Virus genome (UHGV): UHGV-2160239
Strand: one strand, 5' to 3'
Source of the DNA: a virus
DNA: 34,355 nucleotides
Shown piece after piece: positions 1,057 through 16,539 of this stretch (within the stretch, counting starts at the first letter, position 1; the number at the start of each line of letters is the position of its first letter). The notes under the pieces are model-generated. The model did no database searches, was not told the origin of the DNA, and saw only the letters and a program-made list of their open reading frames with translations. The position numbers were made by a program, and so were the translations under genes.

Positions 1057-1386
1057 TTAACCAATTTTCCTTTCGGATGGGGGTAAATCCGTTGGCTCTT
1101 GCCCATAGTGTGCGAGAGCCGGAGCTATCTGCCCGGATTCAGGCGCAATTTTTCCAGTCATAAACCACAAGGCATATTTTTCGAACCGCGGGCAATTTAA
1201 GATTTTCATCATTACATCCCCTTTGGGTATGGATTCGCCAGTCTCATAACGCCATAGCGCGTTATGCGGAATACCTATTAACTCCGCAGCCTCATTGCGA
1301 CTTGTAATGCGCTCACTTTCACGCATTAGTTTTAGTTTTTCACCAATCTCCAAAATCATATTGCATTCTCCAAATATGTAGTGCAT
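1057..1386 (-). CDS. C: Immunity repressor, P2 C-like
   Basis: 109 aa ORF diverging from cox; C-terminal segment WFMTGKIAPESGQIAPALAHYGQ matches my recollection of the P2 C repressor family; N-terminal HTH-like region. Confidence 0.8.
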   Translation of the reverse strand: MHYIFGECNMILEIGEKLKLMRESERITSRNEAAELIGIPHNALWRYETGESIPKGDVMMKILNCPRFEKYALWFMTGKIAPESGQIAPALAHYGQEPTDLPPSERKIG

Positions 1387-1453
1387 TATGCAAACAATGA
1401 GTTGAACTATGGGGTAAATATCTCACCTATACCCCAAACAGGGAGATTATCAC
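1387..1453. promoter_or_regulatory. Divergent C / cox promoter-operator region (putative)
   Basis: 67 bp between divergent repressor and cox starts; inverted repeat TGGGGTA (1410-1416) / TACCCCA (1430-1436) and direct CTATGGGG/CTATACCCC-like half sites. Inferred from position and symmetry only. Confidence 0.35.
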
Positions 1454-1780
1454 ATGAATGAAGAACTATTGAGGGCATTGTTTAAGATCCCAGACCCCAT
1501 CACCGTCGATGAATTTGCTCGCCGCACGGGCAAGACCGAATCAGCCGTAAGAAAGTTGGTGGAACGTCGACTTATCCCTCTGGCCACTGAGCGTGAAGTT
1601 TTAGGCGAGGAAGGAAGTTCACGCCGCCTTCTCATCCTATGGAACGAGTGGCTCGAAATGGTCTATGACGCAACGAAACAGCTTCCTCCTGAGCGTAAAG
1701 ATTGGCGCAACCACTGGCTTAATAAAGCCAAGAAGCTGGCGGAAGATTTGGGATTAGGCTTCCTTAATTTTGCTGCATGA
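1454..1780 (+). CDS. cox: Cox-like excisionase / early transcriptional regulator
   Basis: 108 aa first gene of the rightward early operon; GGGAG RBS 10 nt upstream; pattern EFARRTGKTESAVRKLVERRLIP resembles the Cox winged-helix family. Confidence 0.65.
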   Translation: MNEELLRALFKIPDPITVDEFARRTGKTESAVRKLVERRLIPLATEREVLGEEGSSRRLLILWNEWLEMVYDATKQLPPERKDWRNHWLNKAKKLAEDLGLGFLNFAA

Positions 1781-1798
1781 GATGCAGGGAGTTTTGAT

Positions 1799-2140
1799 AT
1801 GAAACAGCAACGTAATTCACGCTTTCGTAATGGTGCTGAACGCCACGCTAACCGTTTCGCTACCAGTGCATCACGCAGCAACATCCGCTACAGCCTGAGT
1901 GATACACACGCAACGCCGGATGGCTACCCAGTAAAACAAATCGGCGAGCATGCCTGGCTGATTGAGAAAGCTGGAATCGTGGTCCACAAATGCCCACGCA
2001 ATCCGTTTACCGGAAACCGCATTTTTGCACTAAGCAGCGGCGACAATCAGTTCGGGCAGGATTTCACATTATACGAAGCATTACGCACGGTTGATCGTCT
2101 GCTTCGTGGGCAAAGTTTTATTAAACAGACTGATTTATAA
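1799..2140 (+). CDS. Hypothetical early protein
   Basis: 113 aa ORF with GGGAG RBS; co-directional with the early operon; no recognisable motif. Confidence 0.5.
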   Translation: MKQQRNSRFRNGAERHANRFATSASRSNIRYSLSDTHATPDGYPVKQIGEHAWLIEKAGIVVHKCPRNPFTGNRIFALSSGDNQFGQDFTLYEALRTVDRLLRGQSFIKQTDL

Positions 2141-2150
2141 CAGGTGCGTT

Positions 2151-2429
2151 ATGACCAAAGAGCATGCACAAGGTGTATTTATCCGTTTTATTGATTTTCG
2201 CGGTGAGTTGTTGTTACGCGCATCAGCTATTGATGCTGTAGTCCCGGCAGAAAAAGACGTGGCCACTTACCTTTATCTGAACGGCACGCGATTGTTTGTG
2301 GAGCTTCCGTACCACACCGTACGCGAAATCATTAGCGAAGCTGAAAAGGCACGCCAGGTTAATGGCGATGAACCCTATATCGAAATTATTTGCATGGATT
2401 CAGAAGCTGAAATACAGAAAGCAGATTAA
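2151..2429 (+). CDS. Hypothetical early protein
   Basis: 92 aa ORF (internal ATG of track ORF 2091..2429), tightly packed in the early operon. Confidence 0.45.
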   Translation: MTKEHAQGVFIRFIDFRGELLLRASAIDAVVPAEKDVATYLYLNGTRLFVELPYHTVREIISEAEKARQVNGDEPYIEIICMDSEAEIQKAD

Positions 2430-2440
2430 AGGGCGTTGTG

Positions 2441-2683
2441 ATGGGCAAAGAATATAAAACTCTCATTAACAAAGCACTTGAGCGTTTTTATTTTCGCTTA
2501 AGTGCATCAGGCGCTCATGCTGAACGTGCGGCCCGTGACTCATTGACCAGAGCAATCCGAAGTCTGTATGACGTGGCTTTTTACGCTGATGATCTGGATG
2601 CACTTAACGAACTTTCCGAGCTGATCTGTGCCGCAGAATGCGGGGAACACATTGAACCGTATAAGCTGGGGAATATCGCATGA
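2441..2683 (+). CDS. Hypothetical early protein
   Basis: 80 aa ORF starting at ATG 2441 (GTG 2438 also possible); stop overlaps the start of the next small ORF. Confidence 0.45.
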   Translation: MGKEYKTLINKALERFYFRLSASGAHAERAARDSLTRAIRSLYDVAFYADDLDALNELSELICAAECGEHIEPYKLGNIA

Positions 2684-2793
2684 GTATATTTATCTCATGG
2701 CTTGTTCTGATTATTTCGGTGGCCTGTGCCATTGGAATTATGCGAATTATTCATTCAGTGAAAAAGATCGAGCGTTTTTTCTCTGATGAATAA
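2680..2793 (+). CDS. Small hydrophobic single-pass membrane peptide (37 aa)
   Basis: ATGA start/stop overlap with the upstream gene; translation MSIFISWLVLIISVACAIGIMRIIHSVKKIERFFSDE is one TM helix plus a charged tail; below the ORF-track length cutoff. Confidence 0.35.
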   Translation: MSIFISWLVLIISVACAIGIMRIIHSVKKIERFFSDE

Positions 2794-2885
2794 CGATACA
2801 AATAAAACATCAAATTAAATAAGAAAACGTGAAAACCATCCGTATTAACGGAGGTATTCGCACACGTAAATAACGGAGATATAAA

Positions 2886-3302
2886 ATGAACGCAAAAGAA
2901 AAAAATATTATCAATACATTAAAAATAGTGTCAGCAGAGCAAGACAAGCTGTCCAGGGCAGCCCAGAAAGATAATCAACATATGGTAGCGCTTTACGCAC
3001 TGACCATCGCAATAGCCACCTCTGAAGCAGCCAAAGTTATTGAGGAACAGAGCAAAGAAATCGACACTCTTAAAACACCGTCAACAGTTGCAACCATGAA
3101 TCCGTCCAGCATTGGACGCTGCATTTATATTCTTGGTTCAGCAATGATGCTGCAATACACCATTATTGCCGAACTGCACGGCAAATACCTGATAACGCCT
3201 TACCACACAAAAGAGTCAGAGCTTCTGACAAATCTCCGCCTGATAGAACGCTCTCAAGCTGTATTCATTGATGACGCGCAACGTGCCGTATTTAACGCAT
3301 AG
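2886..3302 (+). CDS. Hypothetical protein in AT-rich insert
   Basis: 138 aa ORF; GGAG RBS; local base composition visibly more AT-rich than flanking phage genes. Confidence 0.5.
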   Translation: MNAKEKNIINTLKIVSAEQDKLSRAAQKDNQHMVALYALTIAIATSEAAKVIEEQSKEIDTLKTPSTVATMNPSSIGRCIYILGSAMMLQYTIIAELHGKYLITPYHTKESELLTNLRLIERSQAVFIDDAQRAVFNA

Positions 3303-3330
3303 GGTTATTGGACAAAAAAAAGGGGGGGCA

Positions 3331-3534
3331 ATGGCAATTAAGCATTTTCCCGTCGTTCGCTTTACCTCCAGAGGGCGCGAATACGAGGTCGACGAACGCC
3401 TGATTACCACTATCGACAAACATCGTTCGGAAAAGGATGCACACCACATCTACCTCACTGACGGCACTTATTTCTGCGCCACTAATGTGGCGCGGGTAAA
3501 CCTTATCCGACAGGTACAGGAGCAGCGTAAATGA
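3331..3534 (+). CDS. Hypothetical small protein, first gene of coupled four-gene operon
   Basis: 67 aa from ATG 3331, preceded by an A8 G7 homopolymer that serves as the RBS; stop overlaps the next start (ATGA). Confidence 0.45.
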   Translation: MAIKHFPVVRFTSRGREYEVDERLITTIDKHRSEKDAHHIYLTDGTYFCATNVARVNLIRQVQEQRK

Positions 3535-3749
3535 ACAGAAGGCGAATCACACGCAGGCATCGCCGCACACACATGAATTCCTTACCGACGCTGAAAGAAC
3601 TCATTCAACACGAGATCGCTGATTTCTGCGCAACGCTGGGGTCGCCTGGCGAACCGGAAACACCAGAAGCGATGCAGCGCGAACTCATGATGCGCATCGA
3701 TAACGTTTTTGACTTTTTCCTGAATAACAAAAGAGAGCAATCAACATGA
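3531..3749 (+). CDS. Hypothetical small Arg-rich protein
   Basis: 72 aa; ATGA overlaps on both sides; alternative in-frame start at 3573. Confidence 0.45.
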   Translation: MNRRRITRRHRRTHMNSLPTLKELIQHEIADFCATLGSPGEPETPEAMQRELMMRIDNVFDFFLNNKREQST

Positions 3750-3949
3750 ACAAAAAGACCTGGTTTCGCGCATACATGTGGGCGCTGGTATGCGTCCTCG
3801 TCTCTCTCATTCTGTATGCAGGACTACTCCCCCGAATGATTTCATCAGACAGCTCCTTCCTGGTATTGCTGGGCATTTTCATTGCCATGCTGTACCCGGC
3901 AGGCGTTGTTCGCCTTTTCAGTAAGTACATCAAGGAAATCAAACAATGA
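3746..3949 (+). CDS. Small two-helix membrane protein (possible NfeD/YqiJ-like partner of the SPFH protein)
   Basis: 67 aa with two hydrophobic stretches (WALVCVLVSLILYAGLL and FLVLLGIFIAMLYPAGVV); ATGA overlap with the downstream SPFH gene. Confidence 0.55.
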   Translation: MNKKTWFRAYMWALVCVLVSLILYAGLLPRMISSDSSFLVLLGIFIAMLYPAGVVRLFSKYIKEIKQ

Positions 3950-4776
3950 AGAAACTCAAACTCTTTCAGATTATCCCGCTTTTTGCGGCCATCCTGTTGG
4001 TTGGTTGCGATCGCGTTGAGCCAGGTAATGTGGGCATCAAAGTCAACAAGCTGGGCGACGACAAAGGCGTCGGCGAAGTGGTTGGCGTTGGCCGCTACTG
4101 GACTGGCTGGAATACCGAGGTTTACATCTTCCCGACCTTCAAACAAATGAAGACCTACGATGAGCCGTTCAGTTTCCAGATGAGCGATGGCACAACCATC
4201 GGCTATCACATCGGCGTGGCCTACAAGGTTGATCCATCCAAAGTGACCACAGTGTTTCAGACCTACCGCAAAGGCGTGGATGACATTACCGACACTGACC
4301 TGCGCCAGAAGATCGCCGATGCACTCAACCGACTGGCCAGCAAAATGACCACCGATAAGTTTATCGACGGTGGCAAGTCTGAACTGCTGGATTCAGCACT
4401 TAAAGACATTCAGGCAGAAATGACACCTATCGGCATTCAGGTAATGAGCCTCTCTTATGTCGGTAAACCGGAATACCCACCAACCGTTATCGACAGCATT
4501 AATGCCAAAGTCACGGCAAACCAGAAAACTCTGCAACGCGAACAGGAAGTCAAGCAGCGCGAAGCAGAAGCCAACATGCTACGCGCAGAAGCAGCCGGAC
4601 AGGCTGATGCCATTCGCACAAAAGCCCAGGCTGAAGCCGACGCCATTCGTTTGCGCGGTGAAGCTCTGCGCCAGAACCCCGGCGTTATGGAGCTGGAAGC
4701 TATCAACAAATGGAACGGCACGCTGCCGCAATACATGACCAGTAATACCGCTGTTCCGTTTGTTCCGGTGAAGTAA
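3946..4776 (+). CDS. SPFH / band-7 (stomatin-prohibitin-flotillin-like) lipoprotein
   Basis: 276 aa; signal peptide with lipobox LLVGC; central SPFH-like region followed by an Ala/Glu/Arg-rich coiled coil (QREQEVKQREAEANMLRAEAAGQADAIRTKAQAEADAIRLRGEALRQ) typical of band-7 proteins. Confidence 0.8.
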   Translation: MKKLKLFQIIPLFAAILLVGCDRVEPGNVGIKVNKLGDDKGVGEVVGVGRYWTGWNTEVYIFPTFKQMKTYDEPFSFQMSDGTTIGYHIGVAYKVDPSKVTTVFQTYRKGVDDITDTDLRQKIADALNRLASKMTTDKFIDGGKSELLDSALKDIQAEMTPIGIQVMSLSYVGKPEYPPTVIDSINAKVTANQKTLQREQEVKQREAEANMLRAEAAGQADAIRTKAQAEADAIRLRGEALRQNPGVMELEAINKWNGTLPQYMTSNTAVPFVPVK

Positions 4777-4782
4777 TTAAAC

Positions 4783-4807
4783 CCGGCCAGTGGAAACCGC
4801 TGGCCGG
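4783..4807 (+). terminator. Stem-loop downstream of the SPFH gene (possible terminator)
   Basis: CCGGCCAG ... CTGGCCGG inverted repeat right after the stop codon; T-run is displaced about 14 nt, so termination efficiency is uncertain. Confidence 0.35.
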
Positions 4808-5143
4808 AGCAGCATCAGGATTTTTTAGTATGCCGTTCTCACAAAAAAACCGCTTGCCATGCCGCAATCAGTCAGGTTACATTTCCGCTGCACCTCATAA
4901 AACGGGTGCCGGGTTTCGCAGCCTGCTGACTAGCAAAGCGCACAACCGCGCCAGCGGTTTTTTTGTGCGTACTGTATTGCCACGTCTTTTTCGCACACGA
5001 ATTATGGCGGGGCGTACGGGGCCGACTTCGGTCGGGCCGGGTTCTTTGCTAGCCGGTACTGCGAACCTCGTACGTCTCGCCACCCACAGTTTCGCAGCTC
5101 TGGATGGTGAGTTTTCAAAACTTACTAGCAAAGAGGCCACACC

Positions 5144-5374
5144 ATGGCAAACCGCAAACAGCACCGCGCTATCGCGGAGCGTCGTCACATCCAGACTGAA
5201 ATCAACCGCAGACTTTCCCGCGCATCACGCGTCGCGCAAATCATGCACATCAATATGCTGCATGAGCGCAGCCACGCACTATCAAACATTTATTCCGCCT
5301 CTGTTTTCAGCTATCTGGCGGATGATCTGCGCGAGCTTCAGCAGCTCATCCAGCAGCAAAACCAACTCCATTAA
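5144..5374 (+). CDS. Hypothetical small protein upstream of A
   Basis: 76 aa; AGAGG RBS; basic, helical-looking sequence, possibly a regulator. Confidence 0.5.
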   Translation: MANRKQHRAIAERRHIQTEINRRLSRASRVAQIMHINMLHERSHALSNIYSASVFSYLADDLRELQQLIQQQNQLH

Positions 5375-5446
5375 TTCCTGTTCCGGGCCTTTCCTGCACC
5401 TTGCGGCGGGAGGCCTTCGCACATCTGTACTTTGACGGAGTTTGTG

Positions 5447-7753
5447 ATGAGTACCTCTCACTCATACCCGTGGAACGCGCCGGACTGGGACGTGGCAACA
5501 GCAAACGGCATCACGCCCGACGCTGCCGTCTCTGCCGTGCATGAAACCACCGAAACCACAAGCAACACAGCATTCGCCTACCTGACACCGGACGGCGAAC
5601 GCCGCGTGCTGGATATGAGCGACCTCCGCGCAGTCTGCCGCGAGTATCAGAAGGGGCTTCTGGAGCGCGAACGACAGGAAATCATCCGCCGCCGGAAACA
5701 TGAGGAGTGGCTGCGTCGCCGTCTGGCCACGCTGCCTTCATTCATCCGCACCACCTTCTCCAGAAAACTGGAAAAGATGGACAGAGAAACGCCGGAACGC
5801 GCTTACCACTGGCTTTGCGGAACGTTCGAGAAGCACGTTCTGCGCCGCGTGGATGTGGTAAATGAACAGTACGAACCGCAGACACCGTGGCCCGACATGC
5901 TGCTCCCTTTGCGCGACGCGTTTCACCGCCTGCCGTGGGCGGACAGGAAGAAAATGCGCCACCTCGCCTGGTTGCTGGCCTCCGTCATGACATCGGAATT
6001 CACACGCCGGTTTGATGACCAGTACGCGCTCACGGGCGATCTGGAATCATCCGTGGTGGACGCATACGGCTATATTGCAAGCCGCGCGACTTTTCTGAAC
6101 ATCTTCATCCCCGGTTGGCGGCATTATCAGGGTGAAAGTCTGACACCGGATGATGCACTCCGCTGTGTTTCCCGCCTCCAGTCGCAGAAGTGGTGGCTGG
6201 GAAAAATCCGGCGAATCCACGAATGCTGGCGCGAACATCTGTTGATTGCCACGGGGCACGTGAGCAAATACGCAGGCGCAAAATGCTCTGACGAGTGTCT
6301 CGCATCGTGGCGTGCGCAACGCAAGGCAAACCTTGAATGGATGTCGGCAATGGACCTGGAAAACGAGGATACGGGCGAGCGTATGCCGCTGCTCGACAAG
6401 GTGCTGGGCAGCGTTGCTAACCCGAAAATAGCCCGTCATGAACTCACCGTTCGTGCGGCTGGCTTTCAGGCGACCGCTGACGAGATGGGTTACGTCGCCA
6501 TGTTTTACACACTGACCGCCCCTTCCTCGTATCACTCAATGCGCGTCAAAGACGGAAAACGGAACGACAAATACAACGGGGCCAGTCCGCGTGCCACGCA
6601 GAAATATCTCTGTAAGGTCTGGAGCCGCGTTCGCGCCGCGTGGCGGCGTAAAGGCATCCGCACCTTTGGCATTCGCACCGCTGAGCCTCACCACGACGGA
6701 ACGCCGCACTGGCATCTCGTTCTCTGGTTCCACCCGGACGACACCGAAGAGGCCACACGCATATTCCGGGAGTATGCGCTGGCGGAAGACGGTGGTGAGT
6801 CGGGTGCTGACAAGTACCGCTTTGAAGCGGTCGAAGAGGACAAAACGCGCGGCCGCGCAATTGGCTACATCGTCAAATACATCTCCAAAAACATCGATGG
6901 CTACGGGCTGGATGGCGAAGCCGACCGCGAAACAGGAAAATCCCTGAAAGACGAAGCGCGACGCGTCAGGGCATGGGCTTCGCGCTGGCGTATTCGTCAG
7001 TTCCAGCAGATTGGGGGCGCACCTGTTTCGGTCTGGCGTGAACTGCGCCGACTGGGGGGGTGTGAACTGGTACTGCATCCACAGATTGAAGGCATTCGCG
7101 CCGCAGCAGATGAGGGGGACTGGCAGGCGTACACCATGCTTCAGGGTGGGCCTTTTGTGGAGCGTTGCGAACTGGTGGTTCGTCTCGCCTATGACAGACA
7201 GGAGGATGCCAACGCCTACGGCGACACAGTTTGCAAAATTGCAGGAGTCCGCGACATGACAATGCCGCCGGAAGACATGATTTTCACTCGCCTTAACACT
7301 TACAAAATTGTGCCAAAAGTCAGCAAAAACAATGACAAAGAACAAACAGAAGGCCGCGACGCGGCCCCTTGGAGTTCTGTCAATAACTGTACGCACAGAC
7401 GAAGCAGTGGTGAGCATGAAGGCGAGCATTCCGACAAAACACCACCGGAATCACCGCCGGAAACGGTGAAAAAAGCGCCGGAATCACCATCACAGACAGA
7501 AGAAGATAGCGCCAGTCTTAACCAAATCATCGGGCCGCTGGAGCGACTCGGCTTTACCGTGTCCCGCCACCTCGCAAAATCCGTTCTTGCGGGTGGCGTA
7601 GTGCGCTCAACCGACGGTGTTGTCGCCCGCTGGGACACATCATGTAACAGACTGGTGGTCACGCGCGCGAACGCGTCGCCGTCGCTGGTTGTTTCGAAGG
7701 TTTCCGAATACACCAGACGACTGAAATGGGCGCTGGCACGGAGGTCGCTGTGA
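5447..7753 (+). CDS. A: Replication initiation endonuclease (P2 gpA-like, HUH rolling-circle)
   Basis: About 768 aa from ATG 5447 (GGAG 6 nt upstream); HUH-type metal motif in TPHWHLVLWF and catalytic tyrosine motif GYIVKYISKNIDGY; size and position match P2 gene A. Confidence 0.9.
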   Translation: MSTSHSYPWNAPDWDVATANGITPDAAVSAVHETTETTSNTAFAYLTPDGERRVLDMSDLRAVCREYQKGLLERERQEIIRRRKHEEWLRRRLATLPSFIRTTFSRKLEKMDRETPERAYHWLCGTFEKHVLRRVDVVNEQYEPQTPWPDMLLPLRDAFHRLPWADRKKMRHLAWLLASVMTSEFTRRFDDQYALTGDLESSVVDAYGYIASRATFLNIFIPGWRHYQGESLTPDDALRCVSRLQSQKWWLGKIRRIHECWREHLLIATGHVSKYAGAKCSDECLASWRAQRKANLEWMSAMDLENEDTGERMPLLDKVLGSVANPKIARHELTVRAAGFQATADEMGYVAMFYTLTAPSSYHSMRVKDGKRNDKYNGASPRATQKYLCKVWSRVRAAWRRKGIRTFGIRTAEPHHDGTPHWHLVLWFHPDDTEEATRIFREYALAEDGGESGADKYRFEAVEEDKTRGRAIGYIVKYISKNIDGYGLDGEADRETGKSLKDEARRVRAWASRWRIRQFQQIGGAPVSVWRELRRLGGCELVLHPQIEGIRAAADEGDWQAYTMLQGGPFVERCELVVRLAYDRQEDANAYGDTVCKIAGVRDMTMPPEDMIFTRLNTYKIVPKVSKNNDKEQTEGRDAAPWSSVNNCTHRRSSGEHEGEHSDKTPPESPPETVKKAPESPSQTEEDSASLNQIIGPLERLGFTVSRHLAKSVLAGGVVRSTDGVVARWDTSCNRLVVTRANASPSLVVSKVSEYTRRLKWALARRSL

Positions 7754-15486: not shown

Positions 15487-16539
15487 ATGAATCTGGTGAT
15501 GTCAGATATTACCCGCAACAAACTGGGTTGCTATATGGCGCAGCAGGCGTCGCTTAACAATATCCCGGTTTCTGCACTGGTATCGCGATTTACCGTAGAA
15601 CCCTCGGTGCAGCAGCGTTTTGAAAACGCAGTAAAGGAGAGCACTGAATTTACAAAAAAAATTAACGTATTCGGTGTGACCGACCAGAAAGGCGAAAAAA
15701 TCCTCCTGGATACCACCGGGCCGATTGCGCGCACGAATACCAGTTATGACGGCACAAAACGCCGTAACCCGAATAACGTGGTTGATCTGAAAAACCGCAA
15801 ATACCAGTGCGAACAGGTGAACTACGACACGTTTATTTCGTATCCGCAGCTTGATGCCTGGGCGGCACACCCTGATTTTCAGTCCCGCGTCAGCACACAG
15901 ATTGCCCGGCAGGTGGCGCTTGACCGCATCATGATTGGTTTCAACGGCACGTCTCACGCAGATGAGTCCAACTTCAGCACTAACAAGCTGCTTCAGGACG
16001 TTAACGTGGGCTGGCTGGAGCACATCAGAACCGATGCCAGTGAACGCGTTATGAATGATGTAACGCTGACCTCCCGCAACATGGACAACACCGTGGCGCA
16101 CGCGGGTAAGTATGCGAACGCTGATGCACTGGTACAGGACGCGCGCTCATCCCTGCTGGATGAATGGCACAAGGAAGCTGACGACCTCGTGGTGATTATG
16201 GGGCGCAACCTGTTTAACTCGCTGCGTCTGCCCGTGCTGAACAGCATCAGCGGCCAGAATCCCAATGCGGAATTACTTGCCGGACAGCTCATCCTGTCAT
16301 CGCGCGCCATTGGCGGGCTGGATGTATTCCTTGCGCCGTTCTTCCCGGATTCAACGATGCTGATCACCTCGTTCAACAACCTGTCGATTTACTGGCAGAA
16401 AGGAACAATGCGTCGCCTGATGAAAGACGAGCCGGAATACAACCGCATCGCCACTTACCAGTCCATCAATGACGCTTATGTCGTTGAAGACTATGGCAAG
16501 TGCGCGATGGTCACTGGCCTGAAGTTCGCCGACAGCTAA
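15487..16539 (+). CDS. N: Major capsid protein (P2 gpN-like)
   Basis: 350 aa; FTVEPSV motif near the N-terminus as in gpN; an alternative start at 15499 is possible. Confidence 0.9.
   Translation: MNLVMSDITRNKLGCYMAQQASLNNIPVSALVSRFTVEPSVQQRFENAVKESTEFTKKINVFGVTDQKGEKILLDTTGPIARTNTSYDGTKRRNPNNVVDLKNRKYQCEQVNYDTFISYPQLDAWAAHPDFQSRVSTQIARQVALDRIMIGFNGTSHADESNFSTNKLLQDVNVGWLEHIRTDASERVMNDVTLTSRNMDNTVAHAGKYANADALVQDARSSLLDEWHKEADDLVVIMGRNLFNSLRLPVLNSISGQNPNAELLAGQLILSSRAIGGLDVFLAPFFPDSTMLITSFNNLSIYWQKGTMRRLMKDEPEYNRIATYQSINDAYVVEDYGKCAMVTGLKFADS

Follow-up and report, generated by a model that had tools for sequence, protein, structure and literature searches.

Phase variation driven by SSRs has been assigned to transcriptional (-10/-35 spacing), in-ORF frameshift, and C-terminal classes (PMC5320596, PMC6321876). 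The poly-G/C tracts of Neisseria, Haemophilus, and Campylobacter lie either in promoter spacers (porA/fetA) or in coding regions (pilC) (PMC5320596, PMC6321876), and according to the authors of PhasomeIt reversible ON/OFF switching is inefficient below ~1e-5 (PMC6321876). G runs have also been described in mRNA leaders. The G-repeat in the 5′UTR of H. pylori tlpB is the target of the sRNA RepG (Pernitzsch et al. 2014, reviewed in PMC8322730), and in the 5′UTR of M. tuberculosis espR one additional G in a poly-G run raises translational efficiency, a change that recurs in natural isolates (PMC11898584).

The tract described here lies in a P2-like E. coli prophage, P88-like (Peduoviridae, Xuanwuvirus), on the 34,355-nt stretch of DNA that was analysed as a whole and is called the window below. 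A direct reading of positions 3310-3333 gives GGAC AAAAAAAA GGGGGGG CA ATG, that is, an A8 run (3314-3321, + strand) followed by a G7 run (3322-3328, +), which C3329 and A3330 separate from the ATG at 3331-3333. An earlier, sequence-only reading had described and placed this A8 G7 tract (3314-3328, before ATG 3331) correctly. The entire tract is contained in a 28-nt intergenic spacer (3303-3330, +) extending from the TAG (3300-3302) of a 138-aa gene to ATG 3331; the corresponding spacer is 23 nt in most relatives. The last two A's of the A8 run fall inside the predicted Shine-Dalgarno (SD) sequence AAGGGGG and the rest form an unstructured A-rich leader. Locus comparison identifies A8 as an expansion of the A3 present in most relatives, and G7 is the length-variable part, with G6 to G10 among relatives. 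As a composite, A8G7 has a single occurrence in the window and none in 100 dinucleotide-preserving shuffles, even when one mismatch is permitted. G7 alone is unremarkable (2 observed vs 3.16 expected on both strands of the window). The second G7 is found at 7054-7060 (+) within the replication endonuclease gene (5432-7753), where the frame constraint should fix its length and make it an internal sequencing-error control for the tract. Another A8 is present in the window at 15654.

Pairing and positional homology support the view, also taken by the sequence-only reading, that the A8G7 tract contains the putative ribosome-binding site of the 67-aa gene starting at 3331. The predicted SD core, AAGGGGG at 3320-3326 (+), lies 4 nt (GGCA) from the AUG and pairs with the 16S 3′ end (ACCUCCUUA) over 7 bp including one G.U, with a duplex energy of -11.2 kcal/mol and an aligned spacing of 3. 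At the position of the tract, and at an equal 4-nt distance, P88, Chuche, P884B11, and 520873 carry AAGGAGG-CG(C/T)A-ATG ahead of the orthologous gene. The P88-type phages, which are without the 138-aa gene, read ccAAGGAGG-CG(C/T)A-ATG, most prophages with the 138/136-aa gene read acAAAGGGGG-CGCA-ATG, and the window reads AAGGGGG-GGCA-ATG. Set beside the G5CG of the relatives, G7 corresponds to G5CG after one C-to-G change, with the A run grown from 3 to 8. An RNA structure hiding the SD was considered and rejected, as the leader (3286-3380) has no stable RNA structure and folds more weakly than shuffled sequence (z = +1.37). The 138-aa gene itself (2886-3302, +; phrog_9338) is not found in P88-type phages and has its 3′ module boundary at the SD. 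Phages that have it and phages that lack it meet at a mosaic boundary exactly there (window 3303-3326 vs L091-L094), and BLAST homology to P88-type phages begins at window 3320, where the SD has its AAGG.

Several observations support ATG 3331 as the start of the 67-aa gene (3331-3534, +), a conserved early gene. RefSeq starts the identical 67-aa protein (WP_000985158.1) at the same codon, positions 1-67 of the PHROG profile phrog_3459 match residues 1-67 end to end (E = 5e-45), the spacers just upstream in relatives (12, 13, 15, 16, 17, 18, 19, and 20 nt) differ in length by non-multiples of three, and a Citrobacter relative has GTG at the equivalent position. The structure model of the protein is a small all-beta fold, for which no significant structural neighbour was found; searches also gave no Pfam hit, no PADLOC hit, and no predicted membrane or signal segment. 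Public gene calls often run the gene upstream through the tract, giving products of 84-88 aa, for example from TTG 3268 (window 3268-3534; proteins P0001, P0002, P0004, P0008). We regard these calls as annotation artefacts because the openness of the extended frame depends on tract length. A programmed frameshift or transcriptional slippage (A AAA AAG type) fusing the 138-aa and 67-aa proteins was likewise rejected, since the run lies past the stop: the TAG of the upstream ORF is 11 nt before the A run, and both the frame relation and the spacer length are unconserved among relatives.

The left end of the window encodes an integrase (1-1023, -) and a C-type repressor (1057-1386, -), and the early operon starts with a Cox-family gene and ends with the replication endonuclease gene (5432-7753, +). 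A search for promoter-like and terminator-like sites between the tract and the upstream genes found none, so that the operon in question is the phage early operon. The sequence-only reading had taken the 67-aa gene as the first gene of an SPFH operon, an assignment that the relatives contradict. In most of them, homology to which stops at ~3537, a MarR-family gene and an Ead-like gene come after the 67-aa gene. Preceding MarR modules in some phages and SPFH modules in others, the 67-aa gene is not SPFH-specific; it belongs to the backbone of the Cox-to-A (replication endonuclease) early operon. By analogy with P2 biology, this operon is expected to be repressed in the lysogen.

Downstream of the 67-aa gene the window carries three genes joined by ATGA overlaps. 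The first, a 72-aa ORF (3531-3749, +) with a start overlapping the 67-aa stop, is what remains of the C-terminal part of an Ead/Ea22-like gene; the C-terminal half of the Ead/Ea22-like protein is preceded in it by a new N-terminus rich in arginine (MNRRRITRRHRRTH). Compared with P88 (L093 2712-3268), the window is without the MarR gene and the Ead N-terminus. PGAP flags the ORF as a partial pseudogene, yet 9 of 10 related loci keep it intact. It is followed by a 67-aa membrane protein (3746-3949, +; phrog_1130, “moron” category) and by an SPFH/Band-7 lipoprotein of 276 aa (3946-4776, +; PF01145, 7.6e-31; phrog_200). Each of the three has its own SD-like motif, GGAG, GAGAG, and AAGGA, respectively. 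A PADLOC search of the SPFH cassette gave no significant hit. The charged C-terminal region of the SPFH protein contains an imperfect 21-nt tandem duplication (4533-4574, +; 2 copies, 81% match). Just past the SPFH gene are an isrK Hfq-binding RNA (4890-4964, 65.5 bits) and a C4 antisense RNA (5000-5087, 82.8 bits), both above the Rfam gathering threshold, and after the C4 RNA a “derepression protein” ORF (5144-5374, PF25738). Promoter-like sites precede isrK (4854-4883) and C4 (4977-5005), and the isrK terminator is a terminator-like hairpin (4944-4959) with a T7 run. The whole stretch (4890-5374, +) resembles an RNA-controlled antirepressor module of the P1 c4/ant or isrK type, placed in a P2-like early region.

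The corresponding loci of relatives were collected from IMG/VR (64 hits), metagenomes (22 hits), contigs encoding the exact window proteins, and complete E. coli genomes. About 900-940 of the complete genomes have the locus, and alleles were read in the rows listed and in the loci fetched. A scan of genome_contigs with the flank pattern gave no match. Among the 106 loci read, 87 have a short spacer and 19 a long tract. The short spacers are AAAGGGGGCGCA (66 loci), AAAGGGGGTGCA (11 loci), AAAGGGGGGCGCA (5 loci), AAAAGGGGCGCA (4 loci), and AAAAGGGGGCGCA (1 locus), that is, A3G5CGCA and close variants, which are non-repetitive. With ~82% of the sampled relatives carrying a non-repetitive SD, the tract is not a conserved device, and the homopolymeric SD is, on this sequence comparison, a derived and rare form; among the ~940 complete E. 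coli genomes with the locus, long alleles were seen at least 14 times.

The sequence-only reading had proposed comparing tract length among related prophages, and the length does vary among them, so that the invariance across relatives which that reading named as a refuting result is not seen. The 19 long loci have nine alleles, with A7-8, G6-10, and in some a GA insert: A7G6 (5 loci), A8G7 (3 loci, or 6 counting three flank-identical contigs), A7GAG7 (3 loci), A7GAG6 (2 loci, UPEC132 among them), A8G6 (2 loci, W13-16 among them), and A7G7, A7G8, A7GAG8 (266917_2), and A8G10 (PEC41), with 1 locus each. Some of the differences between A7 and A8 can equally be substitutions at the A/G boundary, A8G7 and A7G8 being equal in length. 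Every allele of the long class has at least 6 G's, which is consistent with selection keeping a functional SD. Two control runs of the same loci, a non-coding A7 at 4843 and a T7 at 4958, are invariant in 24/24 and 65/66 cases, respectively. This near-invariance makes the variation specific to the tract, and mainly to its G run, which marks a genuine indel hot spot and not generic homopolymer noise.

Long tracts are found on at least 3 flank backgrounds, 11-13% apart, with both MarR and SPFH modules downstream. Such a distribution needs either short-patch recombination or repeated origin, the latter of which would hint at selection. A strict link between long tract and SPFH held in the first 68 loci and failed when more loci were added: SPFH occurs with a short spacer in L029, L046, L057, L045, L097-98, and L102-104, and MarR with a long tract in L088, L107, and L108. 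The metagenome contig L112, which has 98% overall identity to window 1386-4807 and an unchanged 138-aa protein, carries the short spacer AAAGGGGGCGCA, with C for T at 3308; short and long spacers thus coexist on very similar backgrounds.

A comparison of tract identity with flank divergence shows both how readily the tract changes and how far its alleles are inherited. The loci L061 and L082, 0.19% diverged, have G7 and G8; L001 and L002, also 0.19% diverged, have G7 and G6; and L051 and L106, 0.14% diverged, have A7G6 and A8G10, the latter from a single assembly and possibly an error. As even such close pairs differ, the tract changes faster than its surroundings, and a still higher rate of change within populations is conceivable. 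Conversely, A7G6 is common to four loci 0.1-0.75% apart and A7GAG7 to two loci 0.5% apart. Allele sharing declines with flank divergence: pairs with one and the same tract number 1/1 at zero divergence, 4/11 at 0.05-0.5%, 4/22 at 0.5-2%, 2/41 at 2-5%, and 6/85 above 5%. Three further contigs from independent metagenome/Logan samples match the window at 100% identity over 1.1-3.4 kb and have A8G7 without exception (3/3); one of them is present in 7 samples. SRR29115815 is among the samples with the exact window sequence. In probable clonal genome sets, namely EC556, EC571, and EC581 (equal match length and score) and ETEC1732, ETEC1734, and ETEC4090 (equal match span), each set shows one match span, and one allele where the sequence was read. 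The sharing of alleles with flanks, together with these clonal sets, indicates that alleles are inherited and, indirectly, that the rate of change is far below that of phase variation. Among six metagenome contigs with the exact 138-aa gene of the window, two (L114 and L115) end inside the tract (~3314-3328), one of them with A10G16A; these ends point to an artefact of poly-G reads or of assembly, or else to a sample with tracts of mixed length.

Since about half of the pairs differ at ~0.3% divergence, the tract would change at ~200-300 times the per-site substitution rate (order 10^2-10^3 times), a rough estimate that is distorted by both recombination and selection on the flanks. With the E. 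coli per-site rate of ~2e-10 per generation known from mutation-accumulation work, this would put tract changes at some 1e-8 to 1e-6 per generation. Such a pace fits the exponential rise of the E. coli indel rate with run length (PMC8510543) and, roughly estimated as it is, would be well below the ~1e-5 level of PMC6321876.

The consequence of these length changes for translation was estimated with a simplified initiation model that combines the ViennaRNA duplex energy, a Salis-type spacing penalty, and the mRNA folding energy. Relative to A8G7 (1), the predicted rates are 0.87 for the ancestral A3G5CGCA, 0.17-0.18 for the G6 alleles A7G6 and A8G6 (0.17 for A7G6), 2.0 for A7G8, 1.0 for A8G10, and 0.15, 1.25, and 0.88 for A7GAG6, A7GAG7, and A7GAG8, respectively. 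The 67-aa gene is thus predicted to be translated ~5-fold less with G6 and ~2-fold more with G8, and the observed alleles would span 0.15-2-fold (a spread of ~13-fold) with none of them OFF. Only the length of the G run matters here, and the ribosome can slide along that run. The expectation that tract length alters SD spacing therefore holds for the G run, as a predicted graded effect, and fails for the A run, whose length leaves the SD-to-ATG distance unaffected and is predicted to have no effect on initiation.

Taken together, we favour, with a probability of roughly 0.7, the reading that in A8G7 an ordinary ribosome-binding site has drifted into a run prone to slippage, whose slow, inherited length changes would tune translation without a high-frequency ON/OFF switch. 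The 3′ end of 16S rRNA would pair with AAGGGGG at 3320-3326, 4 nt ahead of AUG 3331, at a site that the upstream A-rich stretch presumably leaves unstructured. The SD would have passed from AAGGAGG-CGCA to AAGGGGG-CGCA and, by the C-to-G substitution, to AAGGGGG-GGCA, while the A run expanded. On reaching a length of at least 6, the G run would have become a replication-slippage hot spot, a mechanism that we infer from the present state of the relatives (G6-G10, A7/A8, and sometimes a GA insert). Length changes would then build up over evolutionary time and be inherited and, since any part of the G run can pair with the ribosome, they would be tolerated. The outcome would be a modest graded shift in translation of the 67-aa gene, which the translationally coupled downstream genes might follow. 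The tract would on this account be at most an evolutionary tuning knob for the 67-aa early protein.

True phase variation, in which the G run would be an evolved contingency tract switching at high frequency in lysogen or phage populations and reversibly setting the translation of the 67-aa gene and of the ATGA-coupled cassette (SPFH here, MarR elsewhere), takes up the possible switch of the sequence-only reading, and we consider it unlikely. The nine alleles in 19 long loci, the differing pairs that are merely 0.14-0.19% diverged, the invariant neighbouring A7/T7 runs, the several backgrounds with long tracts, the ~13-fold modelled spread among observed alleles, and the contigs that break at the tract would all be expected of a contingency tract, and a 5′UTR poly-G indel does alter translation in M. 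tuberculosis espR (PMC11898584). G7 also reaches the poly-G/C cut-off of at least 7 applied in Campylobacter to predict phase-variable loci, with A8 falling short of the cut-off of at least 10 (PMC6321876). Against a switch, the alleles have phylogenetic signal and are identical among flank-identical sequences, all of them A8G7, and in probable clonal sets; 82% of the relatives have a non-repetitive SD, the model predicts no OFF state, each downstream gene has its own SD-like motif, and the operon would, judging from P2, be repressed in the lysogen. The product is moreover small, has no predicted membrane or signal segment, and does not look like a surface or restriction-modification protein. 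Cut-offs of the Campylobacter type also derive from species without MutS/MutL repair, unlike E. coli, which has such mismatch repair.

It is similarly improbable that the apparent length variation is mostly homopolymer sequencing or assembly error around a tract that within each lineage is effectively stable. Several sequencing platforms make errors in G runs, 4 of the 9 long alleles are singletons (A7G7, A7G8, A7GAG8, and A8G10), A8G10 of PEC41 is an extreme at +5 nt relative to a locus 0.14% diverged, and one MEGAHIT contig ends in A10G16, resembling a poly-G read artefact. The remaining five alleles, however, recur across independent assemblies and track flank haplotypes, and the A7/T7 runs of the same assemblies are nearly without variation. 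We likewise see little chance that the long tract is a fixed adaptive variant of the ribosome-binding site, in which an unstructured A-rich leader and an extended G-rich SD were selected for making initiation stronger or more robust and then disseminated through recombination, with the length variation incidental. Recombination could have carried it to its several backgrounds and next to both downstream modules, the region folds less than shuffled sequence does, and all alleles keep at least 6 G's. The model, on the other hand, gives A8G7 no more strength than the ancestral A3G5CGCA (1.00 vs 0.87), predicts the commonest long allele, A7G6, to be weaker (0.17), and the long alleles are a small minority (19/106 loci; at least 14 among ~940 complete E. 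coli genomes). More speculative, and in our estimate very unlikely, is the idea that the poly-G SD is a selected “translational rheostat” of temperate phages, a contingency tract in the very sequence that pairs with the ribosome, which has arisen repeatedly on different P88-like backgrounds and, in phage or lysogen populations, reversibly grades an early gene and its coupled cassette (SPFH or MarR). If true, it would constitute an SSR class distinct from the promoter-spacing, frameshift, and C-terminal classes, in a host proficient in mismatch repair.

If drift of an ordinary SD into a length-drifting homopolymer is indeed the explanation, the value of the locus is mainly practical. The tract would illustrate how such a drift can come about, explains the inconsistent gene calls at the locus (the upstream-extended versions of 84-88 aa), marks a site where assemblies break or miscount, and provides a natural allelic series for the influence of a G-run SD and a very short SD-start spacing on initiation in E. 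coli (G6, G7, G8, and G10, with or without GA, and A3 vs A7/8). Should switching within cultures be frequent, the locus would gain wider importance as an SD-embedded phase-variable element in a prophage of a mismatch-repair-proficient host.

In comparison with the SSRs of Neisseria, Haemophilus, and Campylobacter, the window shares a G run of at least 7 near a gene start, with strain-variable length. As in contingency loci, length differs between close strains; conservation of the repeat across the gene family was not observed. Unlike in those SSRs, the run of the window is the SD itself, frame and promoter spacing are unchanged by its length, and no OFF state is predicted; mismatch repair operates in the host, and the alleles act like heritable markers. 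None of the described SSR classes covers a run that constitutes the SD. The likeness to tlpB and RepG lies in an mRNA leader with a homopolymeric G run of variable length and in a graded post-transcriptional control of translation, which is a prediction for the window. tlpB needs a C/U-rich sRNA partner, and none is evident in the window, where isrK and C4 are the sole Rfam RNAs; RepG-like pairing by these local sRNAs was rejected, as their duplexes with 3306-3340 are weaker than those with shuffled targets. The espR effect is ascribed to refolding of a structured 5′UTR, whereas the leader of the window is unstructured and the run is the ribosome-pairing sequence. The canonical SDs of P2-like phages, exemplified by AAGGAGG-CGCA-ATG of P88, are like the tract in position, gene, 4-nt distance, and 16S pairing register. 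The window differs from P88 in having G for the central A and GG for the following CG, so that its SD is embedded in a G7 run preceded by A8 and is, unlike that of P88, prone to slippage.
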